From a bacterium (GTDB lineage Bacteria > UBA8248), in NCBI GenBank assembly GCA_965213685.1, contig CBDBZY010000018.1, forward strand, positions 448,001 to 512,000: a stretch of DNA of 64,000 nucleotides, given 5' to 3'. Both the position numbers and the translations under genes were made by a program. Below, piece by piece: positions 2,214 to 64,000 of the stretch; position 1 is the first letter of the stretch; each line of letters starts with the position of its first letter. Below the pieces are notes generated by a model. That model was not told where the DNA came from. It did no database searches and saw only the letters and a program-made list of their open reading frames with translations.

Positions 2214-2429
2214 TGAAGCAATCCCATATGTTCAGCTCACTTGTTAATTCTATGGTATTTGGCCAGCAGCACACAACCAAGCATGCAGATCTACCTAGAG
2301 CTATGGATATCACTGCTCATATAACTATATAACACCATTTAATGAAGGCTATTGTGTACACCTAGGAAAGACTTTTCCCCTAAACAGTGTAACTACACAG
2401 ACGTGTCAATGCAAAAGTGCATTCCTTAC

Positions 2430-3482
2430 CTGGTAGTTGCACAGTTCTTCTCAACCTATCAGCTGTGGCAGGCCCATAGCCTGGAGTGTCACTCAGAGCA
2501 TCTGCCAGGCTTTCCCATGATGCACTGAGGTCACTATTTATCCAGTGGGTGATCATATTTGTCAGTTTCCTCACGGAGTCTGATGCGTGATCTGCCCTGT
2601 ATATCACATACATGAATGCCTTAGTTGATTAATGTGTCAATTCACATGCAGAAATAGTATTTACCTATAAAAAGAGAATCATAAGGCTGTGTTAGTAATG
2701 GTGCGTTGATAATATCACTGCGCCTAACGGCCTGTTGTTGGGGATTATGTTGCAATACAGCTCTGCCTAATGCACAGATTCGGAGTCTAAATTTGTTCTT
2801 AGCAGTTGCAATCCAGTGCAGTAATGCAGTAGCCTTGAAAACCACATGTGCGCAATGCACTATCTTGATTACTAATTATGAAGTGGGCGTGCACACCTCT
2901 GTTCACAGCACATGCGCCTGCATGGGCACCTGTGCGCAATTAATTGGCAACTGGCTTTGAAGCAAGTCAGAAATGGTTAACCGGCTTCGAAACGGGTGAA
3001 AGTTTGCGAATCGGGTCACAACATATATACATATCTGTGTCATCTTGACACTTTGCATCAAACGCCAGCCAGCGACTTTACATTGTATAAAGCACTTTTA
3101 GTGGGCATGCACTTATACGAGTGCTAGACAATTAAAAAGAGAATGGTTTGATAGACACATGGTTGCTAAAAAGAACCCTCACTGTTGCTAGGGAATGACA
3201 TCAAAATCATAAATCATGGCTGACAACAATGTATATTTGGTAAAATGCACTTGCCGTCGGGTGCTTCGTGCCCTCAAATCAAGTGCTTTATCTCATATAT
3301 GCACCTATCAGCTGTGTTTATATGTATATACATTCAGTCCATGTCTTACATGATAGTGGTTATCTTATGTGATGGCACGTTTAGTTGTAAGCCTAATTTG
3401 TCCCAGTGAGCTGCAGCAAACTGAACTTCATCCAAAGCATTGATTATGTTCCTCTCAATGAAGTCCTTTATTTTCTCCTTAG
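2430..3482 (-). CDS. Death domain split over two exons (3482-3350 and 2596-2430)
   Basis: Spliced through a phase-2 intron (at|gtaag ... tacag|g): ALDEVQFAAAHWDKLGLQLNVPSHKITTIM-ADHASDSVRKLTNMITHWINSDLSASWESLADAL...ATADRL. This fits the Death-fold signature W..LG..L / ML..W....SW..LA.AL. Confidence 0.85.
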
Positions 3483-3916
3483 CTACAAGTAGGGAACAAT
3501 ATATACAGTAAGACACTCCTCCCATCACTACCTCCAACTGTTACAATTGCATCAGCAACTTAATACACAACCAATGTAAAGCCTTGTGTGGGTGTTGACA
3601 TAGTATTACAAATCAATCAATACTACCATTTTGGGGGGTTATATTTTACCCTACAAGCTGGTCTCATCTGTCCAGAAGCATAGTAAGAACAGGAATGTGT
3701 TGACAAAAAGAGTAATGAGGATCGACACATGATGAGACACATAGAAGACAAGTATGGAAGGTATATCCAAACTTGCAAAACTATTATAGGGAATGGAAAA
3801 GCTACCCTCTGTTATCAGAGGTCATGCTCTATACCTCTGTAGCATGCATGACAAGTATCAGATTGATGTTGTTATAAATTAAACACAACCATAAAACTAC
3901 TGTGAGTATGTGACAC

Positions 3917-4309: not shown

Positions 4310-4371
4310 CTGGATAGTTCAACTGGATCATGAACTATGCACGTAACATGTACACTACAAATTCCACATAC

Positions 4372-4988
4372 CATGCTTCAAGGTTTGAATGACTTTAGGC
4401 ACAGAAGGGGAGATTAGTTTTAGCATCAATTGCAGTTTCTGATTAATTCCTTTCACCTCCAGAAAGCAGTAAGGCTCTCCAGCACATGGCTTAGTAAGTG
4501 ACACATGCAGTTTTATTAGAGGAGGGTACGTTGTTGAGGATTTATAATCTGGATTCAGCAGGGGTAGGTCCACTTCCCTCTGTGAAATCTAGTGAAAAAT
4601 TGATCGTATCAAACAATCATCAGAGATAGACAATAATCACAAACTTACAGCTGTGGGCAGTCTGTCGGGAACAATCTCTTTATCAGGTGTCTTTTCTGGA
4701 ATAACTAGAACCACTTCTGATTGAAGTATTCTTCGTGGCTGTACAACACTACATTCAAACTTCATACCAGGAAACATTTCCGCCAGCAATTTTTTTAGAC
4801 TCTGTAAAAAGATTAAGATAGTCTTCATAACATGCATACTTCAGTGCCCCATTATGTACTCTTTTGAAAGTCTAATGAATATACCTCGGCATAAACAGGT
4901 TGACACAGCGATACTGAAAACACAGCCACATGCAAATGAGATGCTACATTGCTTTGGTACAACTGGATGGAGTAATCCTTGACAGGAT
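4372..4988 (-). CDS. Three exons (4988-4885, 4801-4649, 4588-4372) encoding a probable UPA-like beta domain after ZU5
   Basis: Open exons with AG/GT borders and compatible phases (1/0, 0/0, 0/1): DPVKDYSIQLYQ..VAVFSVSLCQPVYAE | SLKKLLAEMFPG...DRLPTA | ISQREVDLP...TYPPLIKLHVSL. The UPA call is positional (between ZU5 and Death domain) and therefore an inference. Confidence 0.75.
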
Positions 4989-5069: not shown

Positions 5070-5591
5070 CATTCTTAGCTTTGGACTGGGTCTCTGCAAC
5101 ACTGGTGGCACTTGTCTGCTTGGCAGCTCCCGTAAGGCAGAAGTGCTTCAAATATATTACACCATGATGTTCCTTCTTCTCAAAGATCCCACCACTCAAT
5201 ACTTTAAAGACATACTTGGCTTGTGGGTCATATTTTGGCTTGGAAGATGATGTGATGAATGTCATGGAATCACAGTCACTACTGCTGTCCAAACCAGCAA
5301 AGTGAGCTATGGACAGTCTCACATCTTTTATGAACTCAAACGCTGGTGTGATCAGATAAACAGGACTGGCCAGCTGGTGCTCTCTGGGTAGATGGAAAGG
5401 TCCACTTAGACATGGCCACACCCTCAATTTCATGGTCGTCCCTTCAGGCACAGCTCCAGGAGGAACGTGCATCTCAAACCCAATCTCCTGCCATGATATG
5501 GTCCCCCCATCTGAGGTCACAGTCTCCTGCCAGGGGTCACCCAGGAAGCATATTCCAGGGTGTGATGAGTCAAACTTGTGGTGGGACAAAA
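5070..5591 (-). CDS. Exon encoding a ZU5 domain ending in an HFC motif
   Basis: VTSDGGTISWQEIGFEMHVPPGAVPEG...GPFHLPREHQLASPVYLI...VRLSIAHF...IYLKHFC is a ZU5 pattern. Acceptor ttttgcag| is phase 1, in frame with the Roc-COR exon; the donor is G|gcaagt. Confidence 0.85.
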
Positions 5592-5692
5592 CTGCAAAAA
5601 AGGCAACACATGTAAGTATTGCAAGCGTACAGTAAATTGGAACACAGCACTCAAAGCAATAATGAAAGTACACTATAGAAGCATATACCAAC

Positions 5693-7774
5693 CTGTCTCC
5701 AGGTCTGCCTGGACTGGCAGCCATAGCTTCTGCTTGTGGGTGAGTGTGCCTGTGACACTTGCATCTTCTGAGCACACCCATGACCTGTGGTCAGGGGACA
5801 CCACTGCCAGGTGAGGGGATGGCTTGTCACAGAGACACTCAAAGCCCATTTTGTGTGATACACTTAACGAGAGTTCACTACACACATCACTTATTCCTTG
5901 GCTTATGTCATCCCAGATCAGTGGTAGGAGCTCGGGAGAGCAGTTGCCATCCACATACAGAGAGTAGTGAGTGTTGTCCTCGATCAGAGTTATCCCGCCA
6001 TCATGCTCGGCCAACGTGAAATGGAGCTCATTCTTGTAAAGGCGGGTTGGTTCTTCTGAGTGGTGAAGGGGAATCTGCCACTGGAATATGCCACGAGAGG
6101 ACGTCATGTACACTATCAGGCAGCACAGGACACCACTAGGAACATGCCTACTGGAAAATTTGATCCTTAGAGTAGCGGCAGCACCACCACTGGGCCTCAC
6201 GATCTCACTGGAATCACGGCTGTCCAACAAGGAGGGCATGAAATACTTGGTGTCGCTTTCCTCTTGGACAGGGGCAATGATTAACAAGTGCTCCAGCACC
6301 CTTAAAAGTGTATCCACTACCACCTTTTCACCTTCACTGGTGATCTCTGATTGCAGGGATTGGAGGAAGCTGGTTGTGATCAGGGCCTGGTTTCGGAGTC
6401 TTATCATCTCTTCTGATTGAACGTCACCTTCTGGAGCATCCATAACTTCAATGCTTCTTTCAAACACAGTGGTCATCCAGTCAAGTAGGGCCATGGGGTC
6501 AACAAAGATCACCTCCTTCACCACTGTGGGGAAGTAGAACATTAGGTTGACAGCATGAAAGAACTGCAGGGCTACTTCCATGGCTTCTTCCGATTCGAAC
6601 ATCAGCTGTTGAGCGATGACCCAGCACTTTGCTCTGCTCACAATTCTGCCTGCTCTCCGCAGTTCCACCTCCAGCAGGTAGTAGCCCAGGGGATACTTGA
6701 GTCGTATGCTCTGTCCACAGCTTTCAATCATATGCAGCAGCTCTTCTGCCATTGGGTCTCGTGGGACTCCTGGACCAGACCCAGCATTGTTAACAGCGTG
6801 GATGATCTCATTGTGGGAATACTTAATGAGACATTTCTTGAATCTTTCCAGCATTGTTGCCAGCTTCCGATTCTTGTCTTCAAATGATTCACCTGATGCA
6901 AGCAATTTATCCTTGAACGTGCCAATCACCATGCTCTTTGGGTGCTCTGGCTGCTTCTCAATAAAGGACATTGGTAGCTGTGAGTGCTGACACTGTGTCA
7001 TTTGCATGCATCGCATTATTAGCTCTGCATTTGTCAGAGTGAAGTGGCCAAGACTGTAGTTGGCGCCATTTGGTGCAAAATAGTCCACAGCTGGACGGTC
7101 ATCTAGCTTATCAGAAAGCTTGAACAATTGTAGTCGAAGAAATGCATTCTTCATCAGAATAGGGATCATCTCCATGAATTGTGGTTGGCCACCGCAGTCC
7201 ACAAACAGGAGGAAGTGGGTCTTCAGTACCTCTCTGGACCCTTTCAACTTGGTCATCTTTCGGGCGATCTCAGCTGTGCGTGGGAGAATATCTGCCCTTG
7301 AAGCTGCAGAGGGTGTGGCCCTAATTTCAGATGTGGCAGATACTGCAGTAACTTGTGTACTGCTGACAGCCTCCCCTTCTTCCTTTGGCAGCTGCTGAGG
7401 CTTGGCTTGTGCTTCTTCACTGCTGGACCCAGCCTGGCCTATTTGCTGGCTGCTGACTTGTACTACTGAAGTGCTTGGCTCTTCTTCTGTGATGGAGACA
7501 CCGGCTGAAAGATTCTCGGCTATCATGTCCACCATATCTGAAGGACTTATTTGCCGACACTTAAGGTGCTGTCCATCCACCTTTTCCATGATGAACCTCT
7601 TGGCCTGTTCCATGCAGGCTGTGCTGGTACGAGCAGGTGGTAGGGTCTCGTTGCATAGGAAATGCCCCAGAGACGTCTTCCCCACACCAGGAGCACCGCT
7701 AACAGCGCATATGGTGTAGTCTGCCAAAACATGACCCTTCTGTAGTTGTCGCAGTAACTCCTGAGTGAATATGT
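5693..7774 (-). CDS. Large exon encoding a Roc (ROCO-family) GTPase plus COR domain; part of a multi-exon gene
   Basis: 684-aa ORF with G1 GAPGVGKT, G2 RTST, G3 DCGGQ, G4 IGTFKD and G5-like HAVNN, followed by a COR-like region (YPLGYYLLEVEL...ALQFFHAVNLMFYFP...IFVDP...YFMPSLL...VPSGVLCCLI). Acceptor aacag| before 7774 (phase 1, xDIFTQELLRQLQKGHV); donor acag|gttggt after 5693 (phase 1). Confidence 0.9.
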
Positions 7775-8487
7775 CTGTTCATGTAAAAGGAAGTAGCAAT
7801 ACTAACGGTAAGGGCAGGCAAAATCCAGTATAATTGCTAAGTGTAGTAAGCAGATGCGGCACTGCCTGCACTTTATATATATTCACACTATAATTTTTGG
7901 GGGGTTATTCCGATGTCATAGTATTGTGTTTACAGTGCAGTAGTGTGATTGTCCGCCGTTACTGCATAGCGCTTCGAACGGCACGGTCGTAAAAACAGCG
8001 TTCGTACCCGCACTCTCCGCGGTCTTCCGCAGATTGGGCGTGGCCTGCTTTGGCCTCTGCCTTCGCAGCTGCGTCTTTGGAAATAGCAGAACGCTTATAT
8101 ATGAGAGCTTTACGTCCCTTGGCGTGTTGAAGGAAGTAGCGCAGGCATCAACGCAGCATATAGCGCATGCGGAACGAGGTTGAACGTAACATTTTGCTCA
8201 TGGGCGGTTATTGACTTTTTACTCACACCCTGAGGGTCAAGGTTCACAAGACCACCTTGAAGCTGGCAACAGGTGTCAAACAACGTGAAGAAGGACGATC
8301 GCGCGTTTCATGAGCGGCCAGAATGATTACTGACGCCGAACTCAGAACGACTGACAGTACGGACAATGGACTGCCTTTACCCGAAACCCTCACAGAGCAA
8401 AATTGTAAGTATAGTATCTATGGATTGCGTGGGAACTTCACCGCTAAACTCCAAGTTGTGACCAAGCCTTCGTGTGGCTCTCTCATG

Positions 8488-8706
8488 CATTGGCGTATGA
8501 GAGGCATGAATATTGGGGAGGCTGACAGAGCGCAAAGCCTTTAAACACTTTGGGGAGGAGCTTATTATTATATGTCAACAAGAATCAGGCCTATTAAAAA
8601 TATTGGGAGGACTCTGCCCCCTCCAGAAAAATATTGGGGGGGCTCTGCCCCCTCCAGAAAAATATTGGGGGGGCTCCAGCCCCCCCCCCCCCTTCCTACG
8701 CCTATG
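8488..8706. mobile_element. MITE with CAT.GGCGTA...TACGCCTATG termini
   Basis: Short terminal inverted repeats and internal ccagaaaaatattggggg repeats; absent at the paralogous site near 13745. Confidence 0.6.
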
Positions 8707-8833
8707 CTATGTGTGTGTGGCAGTTGAAGAGTTACTATGCTATGTGTGTGTGGCAGTTGAAGAGTTACTGTAAGCCATCAGTGTGTGTTGGAATGTTGTG
8801 ATACATGTCGATCCCTAGCGGGATTCTGACGCC

Positions 8834-8997
8834 ACATACAGAGTGATATTGAGAATTGTGAGGGCTGGCTGTCGCACTGTGGCCATAGCTCAGGTGGTAG
8901 AGCACTGACAGCTAAAGTCAGATGTCCCCGGTTCAATCCCGGGTGGCTGCCAGTTTTTCACGGTTCTCTAAAATATTCCCAAGCCTTTCCTCATGTA
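8834..8997 (+). mobile_element. tRNA-derived SINE, family A
   Basis: Box A TAGCTCAGGTGGTAGAGC and box B GGTTCAATCCC; further copies at 9131-9296 (+) and 39357-39481 (-). Confidence 0.8.
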
Positions 8998-9130
8998 TAA
9001 CGTAGTTTGTGTGTTGTGTTCAGTGACTCCCTAGAGGGAGACCCAGCTTCACATGCTCTGCTATGAATACATGTATTTCACTCAGTGTGGCTCCTCCCCT
9101 GATGGAGAGGAGTTACCGGTTGATCCCTAG

Positions 9131-9296
9131 CACATACAGACTGATATTGAGAATTGTGAGGGCTGGCTGTCACCCAGTGGCCATAGCTCAGGTGGTAGAG
9201 CACTGACAGCTAAAGTTAGAGGCCCCGGTTCTATCCAGGGTGGCTGCTGGTTTTTCACGGTTCTCTAAAAATATTCCCAAGCCTTTCCTCATGTAA
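9131..9296 (+). mobile_element. tRNA-derived SINE, family A, second copy
   Basis: Near-identical to 8834-8997, including flank gatccctagc..catacaga, which suggests local duplication. Confidence 0.8.
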
Positions 9297-9324
9297 CTGC
9301 TTTGCTGTGCAATTTTCAAGCTGC

Positions 9325-9361
<37 letters not shown>

Positions 9362-9656
9362 CAACAAGATAATTTCATCTGCATTTCTCTCTCTCTAACG
9401 AGAAAAGCTGAGTGGATGAACTGGCTTAACACACAATCCTCACAGAATTGGTTTTCGACTGAAACAAGATAAAGGTACAGATGACCACACCCACTGGGTG
9501 GAGTCAATATGGAGGGCCACCTGCAGTGATAGAACCTCCGTTCAGGTGAGTGAGTGGTAGAGCATCCCCCCACTTTCCTCTTTACCTGTCCCCCTCCCTC
9601 CCTCCATCCCTCCCTCTCCTCCGTCCCTTTCTCCCTCCCTCCCTCTCTGACTCAGG

Positions 9657-9726
9657 CTTTGAAGTCTCTCCCCTACCCCTACTCCACCACTTGGAGTGGC
9701 TCTACCTGGGAGGAAACAAGATCCAG
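9657..9726 (+). pseudogene. Orphan leucine-rich-repeat exon (LHHLEWLYLGGNKIQ)
   Basis: Polypyrimidine tract with ctcag| and ccag|gtag borders; LxxLxLxxNxI consensus; degenerate duplicate at 14190-14251. Confidence 0.6.
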
Positions 9727-11861
9727 GTAGCCACCCACCTTCCTTCCCACCCTCTCCCTCCCTCCCTCCCTCCCTCTCCCTTCCTTTTTTTTCTACCCTT
9801 TCCTCTCACTCTCTCCTTCCCTCCCTCCCTCTCTCCTCTCTCCATCCATTCCTCCTTCCCTCCCTCCCTCTCTCCTCTTTCCCTCCCTCCCTCTCTCCTC
9901 TCTCCCTCTCTCCTCTCTCCCTCCCTCCCTCCCTCCCTTTCTCTACCCTCCCTCCCTCCCTCTCCACCTTGGCACCTTCACCCACACAAACTCTCTAACA
10001 CATATATACTTGCATGACAATTCCTAAACCACAAGCCACTGCTGTCTTCCTAATAAGGCACACCATAGAGCCACCAGTTGTGTGTGTGCATGTGCTGAGG
10101 AGCTTCAGTGTGTGTGTGTGCATGTGTGTGCATGGAGGGGAAACAGAGGAGGGGTAGGGGGTCTCTGTCCTTGCACTCATTTCTAGACAGGCTGCATGCA
10201 TATATGCCATCCGCAACTGGAGAGCACTGGTCTGGGAACCAGACTCACCATTTGAAGATTGTTTACAAACTAGAGCAAGAAGATTAAGTTGGTGAACGAG
10301 CCTCACTCATTATCATGATGAGTACTGCTCTACTGTGTGCAAGTGAGCTCTAAATGGTGAGTCTGGTTCCCAGACCACTGCTCTCTACTCGTGGACCAAG
10401 TTCTCCTCATAGTGCATGCATGTGCACCATGTCTGGAAACAAGTGCAAAGTCTGAGAATGAGGCTGCAGAGGGTGATCAGAGTGGGTATTTCGTGATGGC
10501 AAGTCTTCCAGTGTTCTCCGCAGAGTCACTCTCTCAATATGTGTGTACATGTATGCTTAATTAGCTAGCCAAGTATTCCAGTTGAGTCCAGTGTTTCTAC
10601 ACTTCCGTTCTGTCTGCCTGTCTGTCTGTCTCTGTCTCCCCATCCATCTGTTTGTCTGTTCTGCTGTCCCTATTGGAACTCTCTCTGCCTTTCATATTTC
10701 TTTGCCTTCTCACCACAGAACAAGTATAGATGTGCCACTTCATTTTGATGGTGGGTCAGTGGAATCTCCCGACTACAAGTGTGGCTACAAGTACACTGCA
10801 GGCAAGTATAGCAGCCTTTCATGCAGCCACAGAGAGCAAGCAGTGGCTATCCTCTCAGAGTGAGTGGTTCTGGTGAGATATATACATGTTCACTGCACAC
10901 CTCAATCACTGATACTTGTCCACTGCAGTGGCTGTTCTCATGGGTGGGAAGAGAGAGTGAGGAAGGAATTACTGAAGCTCAGACAAGAAACATTGCTGAC
11001 ATCATGACTGCTTTTAAATTCATTGTGAATGTATACTGTTATGTACATGTACATGCAATTTCTCCTGCTTCCTCTGCCATTTCCTGCGCGCGCAACATAC
11101 CCACGTATGCGGTTCACAGTGGCGTATGAGTATATACTGATATACCATAGATAATGCACTCGTGTGAATAGCACATTTCTTGTGGTACGTGCGTGTGTTG
11201 ATGCGTAGCTCCACTGACAAAGCGGTTATGGAACAATGGCTGTTTCCAAAGTGATCCAAATCAACGTGTGAAGACGTGAACTTCCAAGATGTTAGAGAGA
11301 CTTACAATGATGTACGCGTACCGCGTACTGCCGCGAGTGAGCTGCATAAGACGATCTTCCAGCTTGCTGCCCTCACAGCTGCGCCTTTGGAAATAGCACA
11401 ACGCTTATTGGGGCGAGCCTTAAGGTGACGGGGTATGTAACGGATAATTAAATATTCATAAACTTTGTGTAGCGCTACTGACCAGAAGAATTACGTTACA
11501 GAGCTTTGTAAGGCAACATTCGAAAGGTCAAGGAATGCACTTTTATACACACACCTTTACAAGACCTGTTCACAACACAGGAATGTAGAATTGAAGCATG
11601 AAAAGCGAGTAGTGAGAAGTGTTTTCCACGTCAATTCTAGCCACAGTCACACTGTGGTAGCTGCGCAAACCAACACATACCGTTTGCTGTTGATCCCCAC
11701 CAGGGCTAGAATCACCTCGTTCGCTTTATATGCAAGCGGTGGCTATGTGAGGGTCTCGTTTCCCCCGCGCGCGCTGATGTTCTTCGCGATCTTTACAGTT
11801 CAGCAGCGTGTAGTTGCTAAACCGTAGTTGTATTGAAATTTTTACATTCCTGCCCTAGCCC

Positions 11862-11930
11862 TAGTCTCGCGAGCCACCGTGTACGCATGCACGCGTGCGT
11901 ACACGGCAGTACGTCTGGCTCGCGATACTA
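11862..11930. mobile_element. 69-bp Academ-like MITE with 9-bp target-site duplication
   Basis: TIRs TAGTCTCGCGAGCCA / TGGCTCGCGATACTA flanked by CCCTAGCCC at 11853-11861 and 11931-11939. Confidence 0.75.
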
Positions 11931-11949
11931 CCCTAGCCCTGTGTCCTAG

Positions 11950-13007
<1,058 letters not shown>

Positions 13008-13278
13008 AGGAATACGAGCAATATACGGTCCAAATTTGCCTGAAGCGAACAAAAATTGACTTGGAAAAGTTGCGTTGCCCGTAAATCGCCACCTTATAGC
13101 TTAACGAACCCCACCCGGTCTGCGCTGTATATATCGTACTTTTGTCACCTTCTGAAGGCGCATGCGTACGATTTAAATTCAAAGGCGGCACGTGGTAAAT
13201 GACATTGAAGTTCATCACATTGAAGTTCAAAGGTCGACATGTGTGCGAACAACTGACTCCTGGCGGCAGCGTCGCACC

Positions 13279-13610
13279 ATGAACCCGGAGCAGAGAAGAG
13301 AAGCAAGGCTGAGCCGTAGAAGAGAAGGCGAGAGAGAACGTCGCGCCCTCCGAAACTGCTGAGGAAAGGGAAACGCGGTTATGTAAGCGATGAGCGAGAG
13401 ATAGAGCTCGACGTGCCTCGCAGATCGCTATTCAGCGGAAGAGGGACTTACAACAGAGAAGAGAGCAGGTGCTACGTTAGACTGTAGAGGAAAGAGAGAT
13501 CCGCCTTCAGCGAATGCGCCTTAATGAGATTGGCTTCTGAGACACAGGAGGAGAGGGAGACCTGCCTTCAACGAATGCTGGCATCTGAGACTCCTAAGGA
13601 CAGACGCTGA
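13279..13610 (+). mobile_element. Degenerate Helitron RepHel N-terminal R/E-rich repeat coding relic
   Basis: Reads MNPEQRREARLSRRRE...ETAEERETRL..R*ARDRARRAS...ETQEERETCLQRM across stops and frameshifts; a similar relic lies at ~21270-21470. Confidence 0.6.
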
Positions 13611-14050
13611 ACTCAGAACGACTGAGTACGGACAATGATAGCTATGGGACTACATGTACCGCTGCATAGGAAACCCTCACAGAGCAAGATTGCGTGGGAA
13701 CTCACCGCTAGACTCCAACTTGTGACCAAGCCTTCGTTTGGCTCTATGTGTGTGTGGCAGTTGAAGAGTTACTGTAAGCCATCAGTGTCACTGTGTGTGT
13801 TTGAGTGTTGTAGATACTGTAGGCCATCACTGTGTTTCATACACGTACATGTACATGTATACATGTACGTTGAGTGCAGGCCACTCAGGAGGGGCAACTA
13901 GTGCTATGAGTGATTGAGGGTGTACCAGAGAAACCTTGTTCTGTTTGAGAGTGATGTTGCATGAAGGTCTGGGTAGTGGGAGCTTTGGTTTCAGCATACA
14001 GCTTGGAAGTTTGTACATTTTAACTGCTTCACTGTACAATTTTCAAGCTA

Positions 14051-14094
<44 letters not shown>

Positions 14095-14450
14095 CCTCTC
14101 TCACCAACAAGATAACCTGTCCTCCTCCCTCCCTCCATCCCTCCCTCTCCCCCTCCCTCCTTCCATCCCTCCCTCCCTCTCTGGCTCAGGCTTCGAAGTC
14201 TCTTTCCCCTACCACTTGGAGTGGCTCTACCTGGGAGGAAACAAGATCCAGGTAGCCACCCACCTTCCTTCCCACCCTCTACCTCCCTCTCTCCCTCTCC
14301 CTTCTCCCTCCCTCCCTCCCTCCCTCCCTCCCTCCCTCCCTCTGTCTCTCCCTCTCTCTCTCCCTCTCTCCCTCTCTCCTCTCTTCCTCCCTCCTTCACA
14401 CTCTCCCTCCCTGCCTTCACCCACGCAAGCTCTCCAACACATGCACACAT

Positions 14451-15057
14451 ATGTGACCGGATCTGCGAAAACTGACCACTTTGTACCCGCTATCGAAATC
14501 GAGATAGCGCAATGAATGATGTCATTGAGGTGTGGTCTAGGTCTGGTGAAAATTTGGAAGCGATCGCCTGTATAGTTTTGGAGATACAGTCCTTAGAAGC
14601 ACGGAGAGTCAGTGAATTTAGACGCACGTGTTTTCCAGAAAACGGGCGTTTATTGCGGTTGCTAGGGCGTGTTTTGCGTAGTCCGTATACTTCCGCGATA
14701 CTTACAGTTTTTACACGCGTACTCGTGTTTACTTGTAATCGACTGATTCTCCATACGATATAGCCATTGGGCAAGCTACAAGTCGTTAGCGTAGCTTGTA
14801 GATCATGTTCTTCGGCTTAGCAACGCACATCGTATACTATACTAGACTATAACTGGGCGCTCGAATAGGCTGCATGTTTCACGCTATAGCGCTCAAACGG
14901 AAGTGCTGATGACTGTCAAACTCCACCACGATGTAGCTAAAGGACCCAAGATTACAGTGGCATAATAAAAAAAGTTTGGGTCTGGAACTACATGACCACG
15001 TTCAAACGCCCGTATCTCTAATGTACATATTTTACAAGGTGGTCGGTTTTCATATGA
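14451..15057. mobile_element. Non-autonomous TIR element inserted in duplication copy 2
   Basis: Starts atgtgaccggatctgcgaaaactgaccac and ends gtggtcggttttcat; absent from copy 1 at ~10005; a related end lies at ~3000-3020. Confidence 0.55.
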
Positions 15058-15290
15058 CAATTCCTAAACCACAAACCACTGCTCTCTTCCTAATAAGGCA
15101 CACCCATACAGCCACCAGTTTGTGTGTGTGTGTGTGCATGTGCTGAGGTGCTTCAGTGTGTGTGTGTGTGTGGAAGGGAAACAGGGGTACGGAGGGGAAT
15201 GTACATGTACATGGGCCTCTACTAGCTGTGCTAATCTACATGTACTGCACCATGCAACAAAATTGTCTGTCTCTCCCCCCCCCCCCCCCC

Positions 15291-15395
<105 letters not shown>

Positions 15396-15602
15396 CTCTG
15401 ACCCCTCACCCCTCACTTCACTCCTCACAGATGCTGGATATCCTGGAACAAATAATCAAATCCAGAGGTTATGTACGTGAAGCACTGTATTTGCTGCCCA
15501 CCGACCCATATTTATGAGCAATCGATAACCGAGACACAGATACACTGAAGGTTTCCTTTGCTTGACATTTTTCCACCTGTGCTTTCTCTTGTGTCTGTTT
15601 GA

Positions 15603-16203
15603 GAGTGTATAAATGCTGGACTGGACTGGACTGGATTACTAATTTAAGCATGCAAGTGTATTGGGACTTGGGAGAGGGGTCTGCGGGAACACTGGAAGAC
15701 TTGCCATCACTTAATGCCCACTCTGGTCACCCTTTGCAGCCTCATTCTCAGGCCTTGCACTCATTTCCAGACAGAAAAAGCTACACATACACTGTACACA
15801 TACGCTATGAGGAGAGATTGGTCCGCAAATGAAGAGCACTGGTCTGCTCTTCATTGGTTAGAGACTGTTTACACACTAGGCAAGAAAATTTGGTTGGTGA
15901 ACAAGCCTCACTCGTAACTGTAATGAGTACTGTTCTACTGTGTGCAGGTGAGCTCTAAATGGTGAGTCTGGTTCCCAGACCAGTGCTCTCCATTCGTGGA
16001 CCAAGTTCTCCTCATAGTGCATGCATGTGCACCATGTCTGGAAACAAGTGCAAAGTCTGAGAATGAGGCTGCAGAGGGTGATCAGAGTGGGCATTTTGTG
16101 ATGGCAAGTCTTCCAGTGTTCTCCGCAGAGTCACTCTCTCAATACGCGTGCATGCTTAACTAGCTAGTCCAGTATTCCAGTCCAGTCCATAGTTTATACA
16201 CTC
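15603..16203. mobile_element. Foldback/MITE-like long imperfect inverted repeat
   Basis: gagtgtataaa..ctggactggactgg at the left pairs with ccagtccagtcca..tttatacactc at the right; inner arms (acactggaagacttgccatcac / gtgatggcaagtcttccagtgt) also pair; partial copy at 10170-10600. Confidence 0.75.
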
Positions 16204-17900
16204 CAGTTCAGTTTGCCAGTCTCTCTCTCCTGCCAGCCTGTCTATCTCTCTGCCTGTCTCTCTGTCTGTCTGTCTCTGTCTCACTGTCTGTCTGTTGTCT
16301 GTTCTGCTGTCTATTGGTTTCTACACTCTCGTTCTGTTTGCTTGTCTGCCTGTCTGTCTGCCAGTCTCCCTGTCTGTCTGTCTCTGTCTCCCCGTCCATC
16401 TGTTTGTCTGTTCTGCTGTCCCTATTGGAACTCTCTCTTGCCTTTCATATTTCTTTTTCTTCTCACCACAGAACAAGTATAGATGTGCCACTTCATTTTG
16501 ATGGTGGGTCAGTGGAATCTCCCGACTACAAGTGTGGCTACAAGTACACTGCAGGCAAGTATAGCAGCCTTTCATGCAGCCACAGAGAGCAAGCGGTGGC
16601 TATCTTCTCAGAGTGAGTGGTTCTGGTGAGATACATGTTCACTGCACACCTCAATCACTGATACTTGTCCACTGCAGTGGCTGTTCTCAGCTGCGTTGAT
16701 GGGTGGGAAGAGACAGTGAGGAAGGAATTACTGAAGCTGAGACAAGAAACATTGCTGACATCATGACTGCTTTTAAATTCATTGTGAATGTATGCTGTTA
16801 TGTACATATACATGTAATTAATTTTCTCCTGCCACTTCCTGCGCAACATACCGCGTATAAAGGGCTCACAGTGGCGTTTAACTCCATGAGTACTGATATA
16901 CATGTACATGTGCCATAGATATCCCATGGATGGGACTTTGAACTCGTGTGAATAGCAGATCCTTTGGTACGTTTATTGATGCGTAGCTCCACGGACGAAG
17001 AAGGAAAGGTCGACATAAAAACGATGGCCGTTTCGAAAAAGATGAACGTGTGAAGACGTGCGTTTCCAAGACGTTAGAGACTTACATGTACGCGTACCGC
17101 GTACTGCTGCGGGTGAGCTGCATAAGATGATCTACCAGCTTGCTGGACACAAAGGCAGAAGCGGCATTTCAGGAACCGAGCAGTGAGTGTGTGCTCTCAC
17201 TCTCACGCTGTTGACAGTCTCTCTCACTGACGGACGTTAGACATTAGACAGTGTTGGTGTCAGTCTTATACATGTCTACTCACTTGCTCTGCATACGCAC
17301 ATTATGCATACATATTGCTGTACATGTACATGTTACGTTGTCTCTACTACTGCTACATGTACCATCTTTCATTTTCTTGTTATACCTCATTCCTCTACCT
17401 CAAACTTTGTCTATTCTATTCCTATTCCTATCACATAATTATTGAGAGCCGCTAGTTATATGCACGTCTTGCGTATGCATGCACATTTCTATTTACTCTC
17501 TCCCTCCCTCCCTCCCTCCTCACTATCTCTGTCCTTCTCATTGACAAGGACATTTTGATATTTTAGTATTACTGCCAGTCAAAAGAATGTTCCAACATAC
17601 ACATATACATGTAAATCCTGTTGGAGAACAATGCTCTCTTGTCAGACTGTACTAACTGTTGTTAACTGTGATGTCATCTGTGTGTCTCTTTATAGCATGT
17701 ATAGTGATGTAATGGTGTAGGCTTATATAGAACTTTGTGTTGGCTGTGTAGTTCCAGCACACATGTTCATAAGAGTCAGTGCAATCACTTATTATCAAAG
17801 CCGAGTCAGTCGCAAGTGCTTCTCTTTGCAACATACCCATCCCTTAATTACACCATTCACATTTCACTTGGTATATTCCTTCCCCACAACCACATGCGTG

Positions 17901-17952
<52 letters not shown>

Positions 17953-18148
17953 AGATACAACCCCCTGTGACACCTTACCTTTTACCTTCACCTTCAGCTG
18001 ATACCAATTCTTCCTCTTCCTTCCCCCACTTCCCCCCTTTGTTCTTCATCCTTACCTTTCTCCCTCTCCTGCTCACCCACCAAGATAAGATACTATTCCA
18101 ACTATGTCCCTGCCCCATGCTGTGATGAGCTAGTGAGGTGGTGCCTAC

Positions 18149-21100
18149 CTTCACTCTCTCTCCTCTGCCGTTCTTCCTCCAACTTGGACCCACTCAGGAC
18201 ATTAGTTAGTGTCCACTTATCTTCCTCTTCACACTCTGCAGTGGAGGCAGAGATACATGTGCAGTTACCTAGGCAACCCTCTTGCCAGTAATTAGTGCAG
18301 TACTCCTCCCTCTGCCCACAGAGGAGATCACATTACATCATCCACTCACACCTGACATCCTGTGCATAGTGCACTATGTACCCACAGGGAGGACATGCCA
18401 CAGCCTTGTACATGTACATACCATCTCACCACATCTCCTACTGCTACTGCTGCCCACAGCATCACTCCAGAGTGAGCAGCGTGGCCAGTCCCCACTCCAC
18501 TCACTGCCACAGTGCCCATCATGCTGCCTACCACACTCACTCCACTCACCAAACTCCAGGACTGTGGTGTCAGAGAGCAGCGGCCAGTCATGTCCTGAGG
18601 TGTACTTGGTAGGGTTATCGGAGATTCCAGCCACAGCCACCACCAACTTCTTTGTAGGAGTAAGGTGGATCACTCCACCACCATGCAAGCACCGTGGAGT
18701 CAGGGATCCTGGGGGAAGGAGTACCTGTAGGGAGGGGAACAAGAGAACACTCAAATGTACAGCAGTCCACACAATTGTCTGCTGCTCCACTGCTTACTGT
18801 TGGCTGTCAGTGGAAGTGTGTTGTGTATTATCTCAAAGGCTGCACATCACCTCCTACACACCCACTGCATTCACTGCTCTCCAGTAATGGAGCAGCCCAT
18901 TCCTCACTACTCTCTCCCTCTCCATACCACACAACTCTACACCACATGACTTCTCTACATGCACTGCACACACTGCCATATGCTCTCCACATGCCAACCT
19001 CTATCCACTCACATGCCACGCCTACTCACCTGGGTTGGCTGCACAGGACAATACCACACACACCACAACACACCATCACTACTGGTATAGGGGCAGGCTT
19101 ACAAGGGGAAGTGTTCAGCTGAGCACTAGCCACACATGCAGTGTGAAGATCATTGCCACACAATAGCACCACTAAGGGGACATCAACACACTCACTGCCT
19201 CATGAGCTCACAGCTCACTCACCTCCTCCCACTGGATGGCGTTAATATTGAAGAGCCACACATCTCCCAGTGGCTCGCCTGATCTGGTCTCACCTCCCAC
19301 CATCACCATACATGGGTGAGGTGGGTCTCTGTCTGGATCCCACAGACTGTAGGCTGTGTGTCTAGTCCTCTCCTCAGGCCATGGCTGGCCTGTCTGAGGT
19401 AGCACTGGTCCAGTCCAGTGCTGGAGAGGGAGAACAATTTGAAAACACTTTGAGAACATGTAATTCACTCATGCTCCAGCTCAGTAAGGCACCCTCCCCT
19501 CTCTACACTGCCTGTATAGACTCACACTACTAGCTAGCCACACATGCCAGCCCATGTACATGGAACATGTACCTGCAAACCTCTTCTCCCATGCACACTA
19601 ACTGGCATGTACACTGTACATACATGTACACTGTATGTAGTTTACATGTAGATTCTGTCTCATCGTGATAAGAGCAACATCTTGTCCACTACTCTATCAG
19701 TTACTATGCATGTACAGACCACTATTGGGTTCCACCAGAGACAATATATTACTGTATGCATGTCCATATTCACGTGTGTATGCTCATATTCATGTACATG
19801 TGTGTGCATGTGATGGTGTCTTGTGCAGGGGACAGTGTCTCCTGTAGCACTGCTCTACATGTATGTACTGCCAGACCTGCCACTCCTCATTCCAACTCAC
19901 AGGCCATGCTCCCCTCTCTACACTGGCTCATGGCTGATGACTGAACACACACTCTCTTCCCTGCACTGACTCATACCAGGTATCTAGGCCCACACTAGCC
20001 TCACATCACATCATTGCAATCATATTACACTGATAGATAAATGTACACACATGGAGAAGGCACTAATTATGTGTTTTATTGTTCAAACAACTGAACTACA
20101 TAAGCAGTAGGCCACGGGTGATCTCAGACAGTACATTATTAATTAGGTACAACTATATCTCAGCCACTCACCCATGCCACAGTGTCCAGGATGAACACTG
20201 CATTTGTCCTCCTCCTCCTCTCCCCATCAAACCCACCAAACCACACGACTCTTCTCCTGTCCACTCTAGTGAGGGTCATGCTGTCAGATGGAGGAGGAGT
20301 CCTACCAGTGGTGGGTGGAGTGGACCACTGACCTGGAGGGGGAGGGAGGGAGTCGTCTGGGACTAGCCACACCCACTGGCCTGGGGACACTGTTCACATG
20401 ATCCACCAACACCCACCAGGTAAGGCACAAGGCACTCTGCTCCTCACAACCATCTACACCACTACATACTGACATGTACTAGTCAACATGTGAGGAGCTC
20501 TGCAATGCTCTCACTGTACTTGCTCTATTTGATTCTTTTACCATAAAATCGAACTCTGTTGCTGTTGGGGTAGGCGAATGGGAAATATGTAAACAATTAA
20601 CCTCTTATTCACAGACTGTAGTGGTATTGTGGGCATGGGAGTGAATACAGTTCATAGTTGACACAGAAGAGGTGCCTGGCTCTGCAATGCTCTGACTGTA
20701 CTTCATTTGAATATTTTACTATGAAATATTTTGTTGGGGCCAATGGGAACTATCTCAAATAAGTAAACATTGAAACTTCCTGTTTATCATAGACAGTGGT
20801 GTAGTGGTATTGTGGGCATGGGAATGAATACAATTCATAGTTGACACAGAAGAGGTGCCTGGCTGACTGTCCAAACATGAGCATGCCAGGCTGATTGCCT
20901 GACATGATACAGGTACATACATGTACATAGCAGAGGGTGAGGGATGTGACTTGTGTAGAGCAGCATACATAGTCACATCATTTGCATGCCCACCTCATGT
21001 GGTGAGAGGTAGCATGTCTGTGCATATATGTATGCTAGAATAACTGACATGGTTACCAGGTACACAGGAGGAGAGAGAGTGCTTCCTTACTAGGAAGCAT

Positions 21101-22688
21101 ACTATTACCATGCCTGGCCAGGCTGTGTGGGTGTTTCCCAACTGTCTATGATGGGGCACAGAGACCACCTCCACCCTAACTAACAGCTCCTCCTCAAGCA
21201 GCCACTGCTAGAGAGGCAGCACTGCAGCACAGAAGAGACAGCCTAGCACCAAACATTACTAACTAGAGGAGTGATGCAGCCGAGGAGGGCCTTGGAAACA
21301 AGAGAGACATGTCTACAGCAGATGAGCTCATATCAGCTCCCACGACTGCTCCTGAGACTGCACTGGAGGGAGAAGCTCGGCTGCAGTAGAGACACATTAT
21401 ATATAATTGCTTAAAAATAGATTGGCCTCTGAGACAATAGACAGGAGAGAGGTCCAGCTATGCAGTCCAGTTAGAGTTGATAACAACTCCTCAGCATAAG
21501 AGATTGTTCAGTGATAGTAGTAGACAGAGGGAACTGCAGAAATTCCATATCCATTCATATGCAGGGCACACTCCCACTAGGGGGTCTGGGAGAATGCCAC
21601 TGAGTGAATTATTGAAGTACAGACACTCTCAGATGGATTCTGAGGCATTCTGCAAGTAGTCATAGCCATTCCCATTATTTTGTTGGGGAGGGGGAGGGAT
21701 GAAGTTGCTTTCTTGTGGGAGGGGGTGATATTCTAGGCCTTTTCCTCCCCCTGCATGAACCCCTGCTGATTTTACAACGCAACTGTACCCCATACACATG
21801 GCCACATGTACAATCATGCATACCTTACTGCACGTAATGATATCCTAAAAATTGAGGTACATAGGAGAGGGCAAGGAAAAGGTATAACTGATCTGCAGCA
21901 CATGACCACACTTATGCATATTACATGATGCATTACCGGTAATTGGTTTCTAATCCTCAAGTACACATACTTTGAGTAAGGATGTCATGCTCTGGCAGCA
22001 ATCAGTTGTCTCTATCTGCACTGAGTGTGTGGTCTGTGTCTGGTGTTATTACATGAGGCCATGTGTAGAGGTCAGCTCATACATGCAGTGGACCAGTTGT
22101 AACCTCATGCACAGCATGTGAGGTAGAGTAAAGGTACTGACAGTCCATGCACACACCTGACTCAGTGTTGTAGTACAGGAGCTGATTGGTCCATCCTCGA
22201 CCATCACTGTCCAGTGGATCAGGAATGAAGCCTGTCATTGGCTGGTGGGTAGGACGTTCTGCGACACCTCCAGCAGTGAGTAGATGTCCATTAGGCAATG
22301 CAACAAGACCAGAGTTCGCAGTGCGTAGCATTTGGCCAGTGTTGACAATTCTCTTCCATACAAAGTTTTGGGAGTTGAAAACAGAGAGCTCATTGCAGAA
22401 GCCTGGGCCACCACAGTGGCCGCCCATGAAGTACACATTTGTGTGGTACGAGGTGACTGCGGCACCTCGGATCCATGATGGCAGCTCACCAGATGTCGGA
22501 TATTTCTTCCATGATAAGGTCACACCATTGAACATCTCCACTTCTCGTGGTAGTGTGAACATGCTGTGCTGGAATGACTTAAGCATGCCCCTAAACATCC
22601 AGAGTTGCGAGCCAACCGAAAATGTTGGTGCATCATAACGTTCCTCAGGCTCATATGAGCCAGTTGGCTGTGCAGGAGGCTCAGCCAT
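18149..22688 (-). CDS. Kelch-repeat beta-propeller module, five coding exons (22688-22157, 20332-20172, 19420-19223, 18724-18550, 18235-18149)
   Basis: ATG in gccATGg just after an acceptor. Kelch motifs VYFMGG, LLTAGG, VVWFGGFDG, MVMVGG with L..F/YN....W ends. All borders are AG/GT and phase-compatible (1, 0, 0, 1) with no stops. The last exon (LEEERQRRESE) ends open in phase 1. Confidence 0.88.
20497..20864 (+). repeat. Two tandem copies of a ~183-bp unit in a Kelch intron
   Basis: ctctgcaatgctct...ttcatagttgacacagaagaggtgcctggct occurs twice. Confidence 0.75.
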
Positions 22689-23779
22689 GGCTGGATCTGG
22701 GGAGAGGGGGGAGGGGGAGATAGCCACTGAGTGAAGTTTTAGCCATGACAATACACATTTGTAGAAGTACACATGTATATGTGAACATCTTTCAGGTCTG
22801 ATTTGAGACAGTGGAACAAGATTGTAAGCTACAAACACTTGTAGTACGTGCAGCATGTGCAGTAGGCATATCTCAACACACGTGGGTATCAGTGCACTGG
22901 GCAGTGCTTCAAACTGTGTAAGGCAAACTAGGCAAATGCAGTCCAGTGTTGTGGCCAGGCTCACACCACTTGCAAGAGGTTGCTAAACTGAGAGAAGAAA
23001 CCCCTTTATGTAGCCTTACCATCTAACTAGGTACTGAGGTTTCTATGCACAGTGGGGGAAATCCCATGATGTATTGTACTATGAGCTAATCCCATCATGT
23101 GATGGATTTCATGGCTGCACACAACGACATTCTGGGGCCATCTCATGCTGCTTGATGTCTGACCTTTATCACTCTTTGCTAATGCTAGACATGTACCTCA
23201 AAGGGTGAAGTTACCATGAAGATACTATGTGTATACTGTCCACAGACCATTACAGTTGCTGACATGAGGAATGAGGAGCAGGAGTTTTGTGCAGTGGGTG
23301 GAGACCTGATGCAGCAATGAGTGAAATACTATGCACATTGAAGGAATGTCAGCGCATAATGATAGCGAGACCTGGCATGTAGGGGTGGGAGTATAGAGCA
23401 AGGAATGGTGCCCTAACAGTAGCGGGTTCAAGCGGTAGAAACGTCTCATTTATTAGAAACCAAGTCAAGGGGCGATGGCTACTCTGAGCGTTACAGTCCT
23501 ACTGTTAGGGGAGAGGCTTGCTATGGTACACAGAGGGATGTATTCTGAGCCAAGGACTGTCCGCTGAGCGGGGCAAAGGTTAGGGCCGCGCTTGTATATG
23601 TGAGAAAGCAAGTGACGCTCGGACTGGCAACGGGGAAAGGATGCTCGGATCATCCGATGTGTGACGGAACAAGGTCTGAGAGCTAGGCTTGACACTACTC
23701 TAGTCCTACCATGCAATCACAAGAGTGACAAAATGTCTAAAGGCTCTTGCCACTTGTTCCCACAGAGATACACATTGTG

Positions 23780-24180
23780 GCTTCGCGATCGCTGCCGGCC
23801 GCAGCGCTTATGATGTATGCAAAGGTAGGCGGAGATCTATACCCCGCGCAAATTCTAAGCCTTTGGCCGTAAACTTATTATGGCTCACTCTTTTCTGGGT
23901 TCTCCTAGCCAGTTGAATGCTCCCTTTGTTTTATCTTGCACGGCGAGGTTCACTCCGATCTGCCCCACCCTTTGCTCGATAGTTTCCTCTTAGTATACGG
24001 ATATACGCGACGTTGAGTCTCATGCAAAACCGGAAGTTCCGTGGGGAATATTGCTCAGCTCACATGAGGGTGACAAGCCAGCAATTCGAAGGCGCCGGCA
24101 AAACGCTGTGTTTCTGAGGTGAATATTGAGCTATGGCGTCCAAGACTGTCACTTTTTTTCTACTGTCTCTCTACTGTATG
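23780..24180. promoter_or_regulatory. CpG-rich putative promoter of the Kelch gene, with a likely non-coding first exon on the minus strand
   Basis: CpG-dense patch in a CpG-depleted background; CCGGAAGT (ETS-type) at 24030-24037; minus-strand donor aaga|gtgagc near 23890; matching acceptor ccccag| at 22697 just before the ATG. Confidence 0.5.
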
Positions 24181-24332
24181 GCTCGATCTGTTGTCTTTTA
24201 TTCATTAATTTTGTCGTATGTTTGCTAGTTTGCGAACATTGAAGCGTCGATCCTAGTCGTTTTTTTTTTTTCCAGCACATTTGACGGCTATTGTTTTTAC
24301 GTCAGCTCTCGCTTGCTTAGATGCTCCAGATT

Positions 24333-24364
<32 letters not shown>

Positions 24365-24819
24365 ACACGCACATTTTCGCCATCCACGCCTACTAAAGAG
24401 ACACGTGAGTTACTCAGTACACGAATCAGGCGGCAAGTATTCATAGCGCCTAGTGTAGCTCGCCTCCTATCAAGAATACTATTGCTAAGCATAAGTATTC
24501 TAGCTATTTGCCTTGAGCGAGCCAAACGTATTTTCCGTGTACGCATGCGCTCGAGACTATAACTTTTGACGTTGCGTGCTCGTGTTCGCAATGGTTTGCC
24601 ACAATGAGAGTCAGGCCCCTTGTATGAACTACATTCCGACTCTTCTGCATAATTATTATTATAGGCTGTCACTTTCAGGCCTGATTTTTCTTTCCGACTA
24701 TACTTTTGTTTCATGCATATTTCTACTATGATCTCTAGAGGTGAATAAAGTGGCAGGTGAGAGGGGTATAGCTATGACAACAAAGAGTCGGTACAGCGTA
24801 GTACATAGGAAAACGACAC

Positions 24820-63689: not shown

Positions 63690-64000
<311 letters not shown>

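Follow-up and report, generated by a model that had tools for sequence, protein, structure and literature searches.

The window analysed here, a 64,000-nucleotide (nt) stretch corresponding to C18:448001-512000 of assembly G000, carries on its minus strand a chain of Kelch exons and, further downstream, a 2.1-kb Roc-COR exon followed by a ZU5 exon. The most probable reading of this arrangement is that all these exons, from the Kelch chain through Roc-COR to ZU5, belong to one minus-strand gene that makes a fused transcript, a reading of the DNA sequence to which we assign a probability of about 0.68, and the source of the gene is probably sponge-like. No other reading is as well supported, since a subfamily with only ~25-27% Roc identity repeats the exon and phase structure with corresponding introns of 0.56-1.17 kb, and a further copy repeats it with a kinase exon after the Kelch chain. 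Judged from these sequences, the short-intron paralogs are more likely to be fused than the window locus itself.

Six exons, joined by their coordinates, give an open frame of 1078 amino acids (aa) at the window locus.

22688-22157, minus strand: Kelch exon 1, 532 nt, with the ATG at 22688 and a phase-1 donor
20332-20172, minus strand: Kelch exon 2, phase 1 to 0; Pfam PF24681 at E=2e-7, below the cutoff
19420-19223, minus strand: Kelch exon 3, phase 0 to 0; Pfam Kelch_4 at 25.2 bits (cutoff 21.6)
18724-18550, minus strand: Kelch exon 4, phase 0 to 1; without a Pfam match
18235-18149, minus strand: exon 5 (linker), 87 nt, phase 1 to 1; 3' end AAG/GTAGGC
7774-5693, minus strand: Roc-COR exon, 2082 nt, with a phase-1 acceptor (ending in gaacag) and a phase-1 donor

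The splice sites of the Kelch chain are all consensus-like, with junction phases of 1,0,0,1,1. The open reading frame (ORF) of exon 1 passes Pfam PF24681, the KLHDC2/KLHL20/DRC7 Kelch family, with 51.8 bits (cutoff 50), and phmmer searches of the PDB align the same exon colinearly with chains of KLHDC3 (E 1.1e-7) and KLHDC2 (query 16-158 to chain 32-180, E 2.5e-6). The Kelch part and linker together come to ~384 aa, and the ~355 aa encoded by exons 1-4 would suit a putative closed six-bladed propeller. At the 5' end, a 5' untranslated region (5'UTR) exon ahead of the Kelch ATG is possible, because a CAG preceded by a pyrimidine-rich tract lies 9 nt 5' of the ATG. A candidate promoter lies ~0.8-2 kb upstream of the ATG, where the observed/expected (o/e) ratio of CpG reaches 0.76-1.06, as against 0.07-0.4 in the gene body, and comparable CpG-rich bins are found 0.5-1.5 kb upstream of the 14 Kelch-unit paralog starts examined.

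23500..24750, minus strand: candidate promoter, possibly with a 5'UTR exon; CpG-rich region 5' of the Kelch ATG

The Roc-COR exon cannot encode an intact GTPase alone, because an in-frame TGA stands one codon upstream of it and the first in-frame ATG comes only after the P-loop. Both a P-loop (GAPGVGKT) and a switch II motif (DCGGQ) can be read in the Roc ORF, and G33, K34, D194, and G197 are invariant or nearly so in alignments of 16 and 76 sequences. The Pfam COR-A model scores the window copy below threshold (20.4 bits, cutoff 35.3), and exceeds the cutoff in the homologs P0017 (69.8), P0056 (39.4), and P0007 (36.6). An AlphaFold2 model of the exon, built with 76 family members, has a mean predicted local distance difference test score (pLDDT) of 88.4, and the best Foldseek matches of the model are the Roc-COR chains 6hlu, 8e05, 8fo9, and 3dpu, with E-values of 6.5e-13 to 1.4e-11; the top structures belong to C. 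tepidum Roco, LRRK1, and LRRK2. A sequence search of the PDB with a 16-member family profile returned nothing at E<=0.01, and this is therefore a divergent Roc-COR. By predicted fold and by motifs, then, the 2.1-kb exon is a Roc-COR module and its product a ROCO protein. The only STAND-type match in Pfam is a sub-threshold hit to nSTAND3 over the P-loop (17.7 bits, cutoff 27.2). No leucine-rich repeat (LRR) was found by Pfam in any window ORF scanned, and the coding exons upstream of Roc are Kelch.

The Roc-COR exon is followed by a 101-nt phase-1 intron (5692-5592) and by further coding sequence on the same strand.

5100..5591, minus strand: ZU5 exon, acceptor at 5592/5591, 3' end approximate; Pfam ZU5 at 38.9 bits (cutoff 21)
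4355..4840, minus strand: two ORFs behind ZU5 that are conserved in paralogs and resemble UPA only in their position
2380..3540, minus strand: two ORFs, a candidate split Death domain with weak colinear BLASTP similarity to a paralog Death

The ORFs at 4355-4840 find no Pfam match even at E<=5, and a Pfam scan of the ORFs at 2380..3540 likewise found nothing. The latter pair nevertheless shows weak colinear BLASTP similarity (E 0.002 and 0.006) to an ORF of a paralog in which Pfam recognises Death at 27.4 bits (cutoff 22.6). A transmembrane (TM) segment between COR and ZU5 was considered and ruled out: no TM segment was found in the exons examined, and the only hydrophobic stretch seen falls inside the 101-nt intron. 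The end of the ZU5 region (window 5100-5250) reads HFC, and the equivalent position reads HFS in a variant paralog (L007, 13273-13899). An HFS motif is the autoprocessing site of PIDD1 ZU5 domains, and on these motifs the copies might not be alike in self-cleavage.

The Kelch chain and the Roc-COR exon are separated by a large interval that is rich in repeats.

7775..18148, minus strand: putative intron of 10.37 kb, with short interspersed elements (SINEs), an ORF-bearing repeat, and an internal duplication of ~2 kb
8879-8951 and 9176-9249, plus strand: tRNA-like SINE copies (ARAGORN tRNA, anticodon CTA; Rfam tRNA 45.5 bits)
7775..8500, no strand assigned: CpG island adjoining the Roc exon, CpG o/e 1.02-1.03
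7.8-8.5, 11.0-12.0, 12.5-13.75, 14.25-15.0, 16.75-17.5, and 23.5-24.75 kb: CpG-rich blocks

Sequence in the bins at 8.75-9.35 kb recurs in the 8-Mb assembly, with 43-63 other copies on average, the internal duplication pairs 9.3-11.4 kb with 14.0-17.1 kb at 80-84% identity, and the repeat with ORFs lies at 11.8-12.8 kb on the plus strand and is without a Pfam match. Over window positions 1-26000, gene bodies are extremely CpG-poor (o/e 0.07-0.4) and punctuated by sharp CpG-rich blocks, a pattern suggesting that the genome is heavily methylated apart from discrete segments that are unmethylated or young.

Much of this agrees with an earlier note on the same DNA, which had proposed a single Kelch-Roc-COR-ZU5-UPA-Death-TM receptor. 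The sequence reading bears out its minus-strand Kelch chain running from the ATG to a phase-1 end at 18149, its promoter-like island ahead of Kelch, and its Roc exon that opens at a phase-1 acceptor (7774) with no start of its own. The junction sequence at 18149/7774 is as that note gave it, and the DNA between the two parts, which it had described as mostly transposable elements and duplication, is indeed made up of SINEs, the internal duplication, and multi-copy bins. As for the proposed domain string, Roc-COR and ZU5 stand, no TM segment was found in the exons examined, and UPA and Death remain without a Pfam match at this locus.

The evidence that carries the fusion comes from paralogs, which were searched for in the 8-Mb assembly. 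A divergent subfamily on contigs C16 and C4 shares ~25-27% identity with the window in Roc and 25-47% in Kelch exons 1-3, and the five-exon Kelch chain recurs in four of its five copies, with phases of 1,0,0,1,1 and an open 1066-aa model. Their linker exon (exon 5b, 93 nt) is homologous to exon 5, and the intron between it and Roc is only 559-1171 nt long; in one C16 copy the linker lies at C16:47819-47911 and Roc opens at 48663. CpG-rich sequence occurs only at the Kelch 5' end in this subfamily, and no conserved start exon was found in its short intervals. The fifth divergent copy (C4:8144-14421, L010) consists of the Kelch chain and linker (C4:11076-11168), an interval of 469 nt, and then, from 11638, a phase-1 protein-kinase exon that scores 126.9 bits with Pfam Pkinase and has no ATG ahead of the glycine loop. 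A Death-like ORF comes next, and the sequence of this copy would thus describe a Kelch-kinase-Death architecture. A distant Kelch paralog at C64:1556676-1562056 has the same five-exon layout, and a perfect phase-1 donor closes its exon 5 immediately ahead of a stop, so that it too continues into a further downstream exon; a Death-like ORF lies ~1 kb downstream of this paralog on the opposite strand.

On the window contig itself, 14 tandem units, all on the minus strand, each present a Kelch chain, Roc-COR sequence, and then ZU5, with Kelch-to-Roc introns that range from 4338 to 13165 nt (4.3-13.2 kb). All 14 copies keep the exon-5 donor, and 15 of 16 keep the AG of the Roc acceptor. Decay is also evident: in two units Roc-COR persists only as pieces, in two others the Roc exon is interrupted (by ~9 kb in one case and by a frame break in the other), and in one broken unit it is down to pieces of 115 aa and 49 aa. 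One unit (C18:532989-538819, L009) has broken Roc pieces that lack the acceptor AG and, behind them, a Roc-COR ORF only 27% identical to that of the window, which by its sequence is a member of another subfamily inside the array. In four units an extra exon-5-like linker, together with part of its downstream intron, sits between Roc-COR and a variant ZU5.

C18:396561-404665 (L007), and units near 99, 299, and 712 kb: the four extra-linker units, with a divergent ZU5 and a Pfam-verified Death domain

The extra linker exon is homologous to exon 5b of the divergent subfamily and, carried along with intron sequence, it appears from the DNA to be a trace of intron-level exon shuffling. Because the linker recurs between Roc-COR and ZU5, and because exon 5 of the C64 paralog has a phase-1 donor, exon 5 behaves as an internal exon.

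The two parts of the array units evolve differently. The median ratio of nonsynonymous to synonymous substitution rates (dN/dS) is 0.21 for Roc over 53 pairs, after pairs with a dS<=0.02 and 2 of 13 copies with stops were dropped. For the Kelch exons, all open in 14 copies, the median rises from 0.43 in exon 1 to 0.80 in exon 3 (28 of 91 pairs above 1) and 1.01 in exon 4 (47 of 89 pairs above 1). Fast-evolving Kelch blades beside a conserved Roc-COR are as expected of a diversifying sensor on a conserved switch, and support such a reading, with relaxed constraint on the blades as the alternative.

A number of observations weigh against a single fused gene at the window locus. The join rests on comparison of paralogs at the DNA level, not on RNA, and four sequencing runs from one study that share 0.59-0.63 of the sampled words include none recorded as RNA. 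Phase agreement between exon 5 and the Roc exon is by itself a 1-in-3 chance event, the weight coming from the paralogs, and conserved adjacency within the array is expected from segmental duplication alone, whole units having been duplicated with their introns included. An intact Roc-COR-ZU5 copy at C18:80571 has the island and no Kelch within 16 kb upstream, its Kelch part having been lost at a breakpoint ~2.2 kb into the intron. At 81 nt past the exon-5 donor (near 18068), an acceptor-like AG leads into a five-residue tail and a stop, just as the earlier note had described it when naming what would speak against the fusion; a Kelch-only isoform through this acceptor is possible on sequence grounds, and in the divergent subfamily an acceptor-like AG 69 nt past the exon-5 donor is likewise followed by an early stop. 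Polyadenylation signals are uninformative in this respect, with a single AATAAA/ATTAAA, at 16977, within 16.0-18.1 kb of the window and none in the short intron of a divergent copy. The strongest of these observations is a CpG island of ~600 nt (o/e ~1.0-1.2) that adjoins the Roc exon in 15 of 16 window-subfamily copies and stays CpG-rich even among copies that are only ~70% identical in nucleotide sequence. It has the look of an element kept free of methylation, perhaps an internal promoter or some other regulatory element.

Searches for fused proteins outside the assembly add to the same side of the balance, with no protein carrying both Kelch and Roc-COR found in them. This is a weak negative. 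An exhaustive search with the Roc exon returned 1734 proteins at E<=0.001, and among the 150 matches listed most are ORF-style calls of ~700 aa whose N-termini read like intron; because the matches are mostly calls of this kind, negatives among the homologs carry little weight. Among those 150, the 17 longer homologs scanned had no Kelch, and had caspase, ankyrin, ZU5, or Death instead; some Roc-exon homologs carry ankyrin repeats (P0149) or Death (P0057, P0126, and P0067), and P0155, P0157, P0158, P0171, and P0004, with identities from 83% down to 40%, are encoded on contigs of 0.14-2 Mb. Compared with longer proteins, the Roc exon matched two from Halichondria panicea (25% identity) that have Roc, COR, and Death and lack Kelch, and compared with proteins near its own length it gave 25 matches of 522-759 aa, all from genomic contigs, none with both parts. 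Kelch exon 1 had no match among longer proteins at E<=1e-10. A metagenome scan with a single protein found none, and one with a 5-sequence alignment found six distant loci, mostly on short contigs, none with Kelch nearby. No fused protein came from a scan of a genome collection or from 40 relatives of the labelled genome, and in the ESM Atlas the Roc/COR clusters come with Death or CARD, with Kelch in no cluster's top families.

The island, the orphan copy, and the acceptor near 18068 with its stop bear on the possibility that the window subfamily now has two genes, an ancestral fusion that survives in the short-intron subfamily having been uncoupled here. The products would be a KLHDC2-like protein of ~390-400 aa, ending near 18068 or by read-through, and a Roc-COR-ZU5 protein expressed from the island at 7.8-8.5 kb. 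The absence of an island next to Roc in all four divergent copies, the large and repeat-filled intron, and a dS of 0.27 for Roc versus 0.09-0.17 for Kelch, which points to partly separate histories, also agree with such a split. However, the CpG-rich region from which the earlier note had Roc transcripts starting in its own alternative, although real and conserved, has no conserved ATG with a phase-1 donor, and hence no start exon. A search of the island for exons running from an ATG to a phase-1 donor with a score of at least 7 of 9 found none in 13 of 15 copies, and the two that were found are non-homologous; with no threshold, none of 12 start-exon candidates in the window is kept in more than seven alignable copies. 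Over the whole intron the sole widely common candidate, in 12 of 14 copies, sits 30 nt past the exon-5 donor. A transcript starting in the island would therefore yield a protein without the P-loop, as translation of an unspliced transcript would begin past it, and yet the Roc acceptor and phase are kept, and purifying selection on Roc implies that an intact protein is made. On balance we regard two uncoupled genes at the window locus as unlikely. The island was also considered as a dispersed repeat, which was ruled out by its presence only at these loci, and Rfam found no RNA gene within it.

A broader version of this argument would make Kelch and its downstream module neighbouring genes throughout the family, short-intron copies included, with the Roc or kinase start supplied by an unrecognised exon or by trans-splicing. 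In its favour, a candidate micro-exon, from an ATG to CAG/GTTAGG, is common to all four short intervals. That micro-exon starts 41 nt past the Kelch exon-5 donor, however, and its supposed donor lies on an acceptor-like polypyrimidine-CAG. The intervals in question are only 469-1171 nt long, with a CpG o/e of 0-0.24 and no second CpG-rich region. Moreover, three downstream modules that have no start of their own each follow a phase-1 linker exon directly and begin in phase 1 themselves, an arrangement that, on the sequences, is hard to explain if these modules are simply neighbours of the gene that ends in that linker, and we hold this version to be very unlikely. The broken units of the array, with their Roc fragments, the ~9-kb split, and a lost acceptor AG, raise the further question of whether the window copy is itself an inactive or decaying member without a functional transcript. 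Its open frame over all six exons, a Roc exon that is 99% identical to another intact copy, and the purifying selection on Roc make this scarcely probable at all.

We therefore return to the fused gene as the preferred reading. Transcription would begin in the CpG-rich region upstream of 22688, and exon 5 would be spliced over the 10.4-kb intron to Roc-COR at 7774. The product would be a KLHDC2/3-like Kelch propeller and linker of ~384 aa, a Roc-COR GTPase, and a ZU5 tail, probably with UPA and Death. What can be read directly at the DNA level is the join, the linker exon, and the domain order. For the steps beyond them, we infer that the Kelch propeller would bind a ligand, that Roc-COR would turn ligand binding into a nucleotide-dependent conformational change, and that the ZU5/Death tail would recruit Death-fold partners. 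The same locus may yield other products as well: a Kelch-only isoform spliced to the nearby acceptor, or a protein without the P-loop, expressed from the CpG island.

The assembly in which the window lies is labelled prokaryote, and is 94% complete with 3.7% contamination by marker genes, at ~8 Mb as against 2.9-4.6 Mb in 22 genomes of the same genus. Contigs C18, C16, C4, C57, and C64 carry animal-type genes, and those examined have spliceosomal-type introns. Because of the excess assembly size and the animal-type, intron-bearing genes, host (sponge-like) contigs appear to have been binned together with a symbiont. Elsewhere in the window, a degenerate (CA)n array (57784-63053 and 63693-64000; 5.3 kb, 85% matches) accounts for the extreme strand skews there.

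Compared with ROCO proteins such as C. tepidum Roco, LRRK1/LRRK2, and MFHAS1, the predicted protein is alike in having COR directly after Roc and a repeat domain before Roc, and differs in lacking LRRs and a kinase, in its Kelch N-terminus, in its tail of ZU5 and a probable Death domain, and in a sequence similarity too low for a PDB match at E<=0.01. According to PMC6320773, LRRs ahead of Roc are the usual ROCO arrangement, with DAPK1 excepted. DAPK1 shares with the predicted protein a Roc-COR and a C-terminal Death-fold domain (Death being probable here); it lacks ZU5, and its N-terminus holds a kinase and ankyrin repeats (PMC6320773), where the window gene has a Kelch N-terminus. The same source lists Kelch motifs among the domains flanking Roc-COR in Dictyostelium Roco proteins and describes these as LRR-Roc-COR-kinase proteins (PMC6320773). 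The likeness to them is by description only: here there is no LRR, a kinase is an alternative to Roc-COR and not an addition to it, and the tail is ZU5/Death.

The individual modules have relatives of their own. KLHDC2 and KLHDC3, which are substrate receptors of cullin-2 ligases, resemble the Kelch part in the colinearity of exon 1, in the PF24681 family, and in a Kelch part of ~384 aa; they are stand-alone propellers, whereas here a linker exon that ends in a splice donor comes after the propeller. The tail resembles the ZU5-UPA-Death supramodule of ankyrin, UNC5, and PIDD1 in having a ZU5, then conserved ORFs and a Death-like region in the expected order, and here it is attached to a ROCO GTPase, and not to ankyrin repeats, a receptor ectodomain, or LRRs. 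With NLR/STAND receptors the protein shares a logic and no more: its fold is Roc-COR and it lacks a NACHT/NB-ARC domain, so that the NLR-like label of the earlier note holds as analogy and not as homology of domains. A literature search found no paper describing a Kelch-Roc-COR-ZU5-Death protein, the supplements of sponge immune-repertoire papers lying outside that search. The predicted protein is best described as a variant ROCO architecture.

Sponge genomes contain many Death-domain genes and unusual NACHT combinations (PMC12909245). We raise, tentatively and as something rather doubtful, the possibility that sponges have a tandemly expanded class of cytosolic receptors in which a ROCO GTPase takes the place of the STAND NTPase. 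In such receptors a fast-evolving, KLHDC2-like Kelch propeller would serve as ligand or degron sensor and be joined through a shuffled phase-1 linker exon to either Roc-COR or a kinase, with ZU5/Death as the output, making an NLR analogue by independent exon shuffling.

ROCO proteins such as LRRK2 and DAPK1 are GTPase switches guided by LRRs or ankyrin repeats, and the cytosolic immune receptors of animals are generally regarded as STAND/NLR proteins. If the fused gene is real, it would represent an architecture unlike both of these, present in at least 14 tandem copies, with propeller blades that evolve fast and with a sister form that has a kinase in place of Roc-COR. It would also mean that early animals built sensor-switch-death-domain receptors by phase-1 exon shuffling that is still traceable in the DNA.

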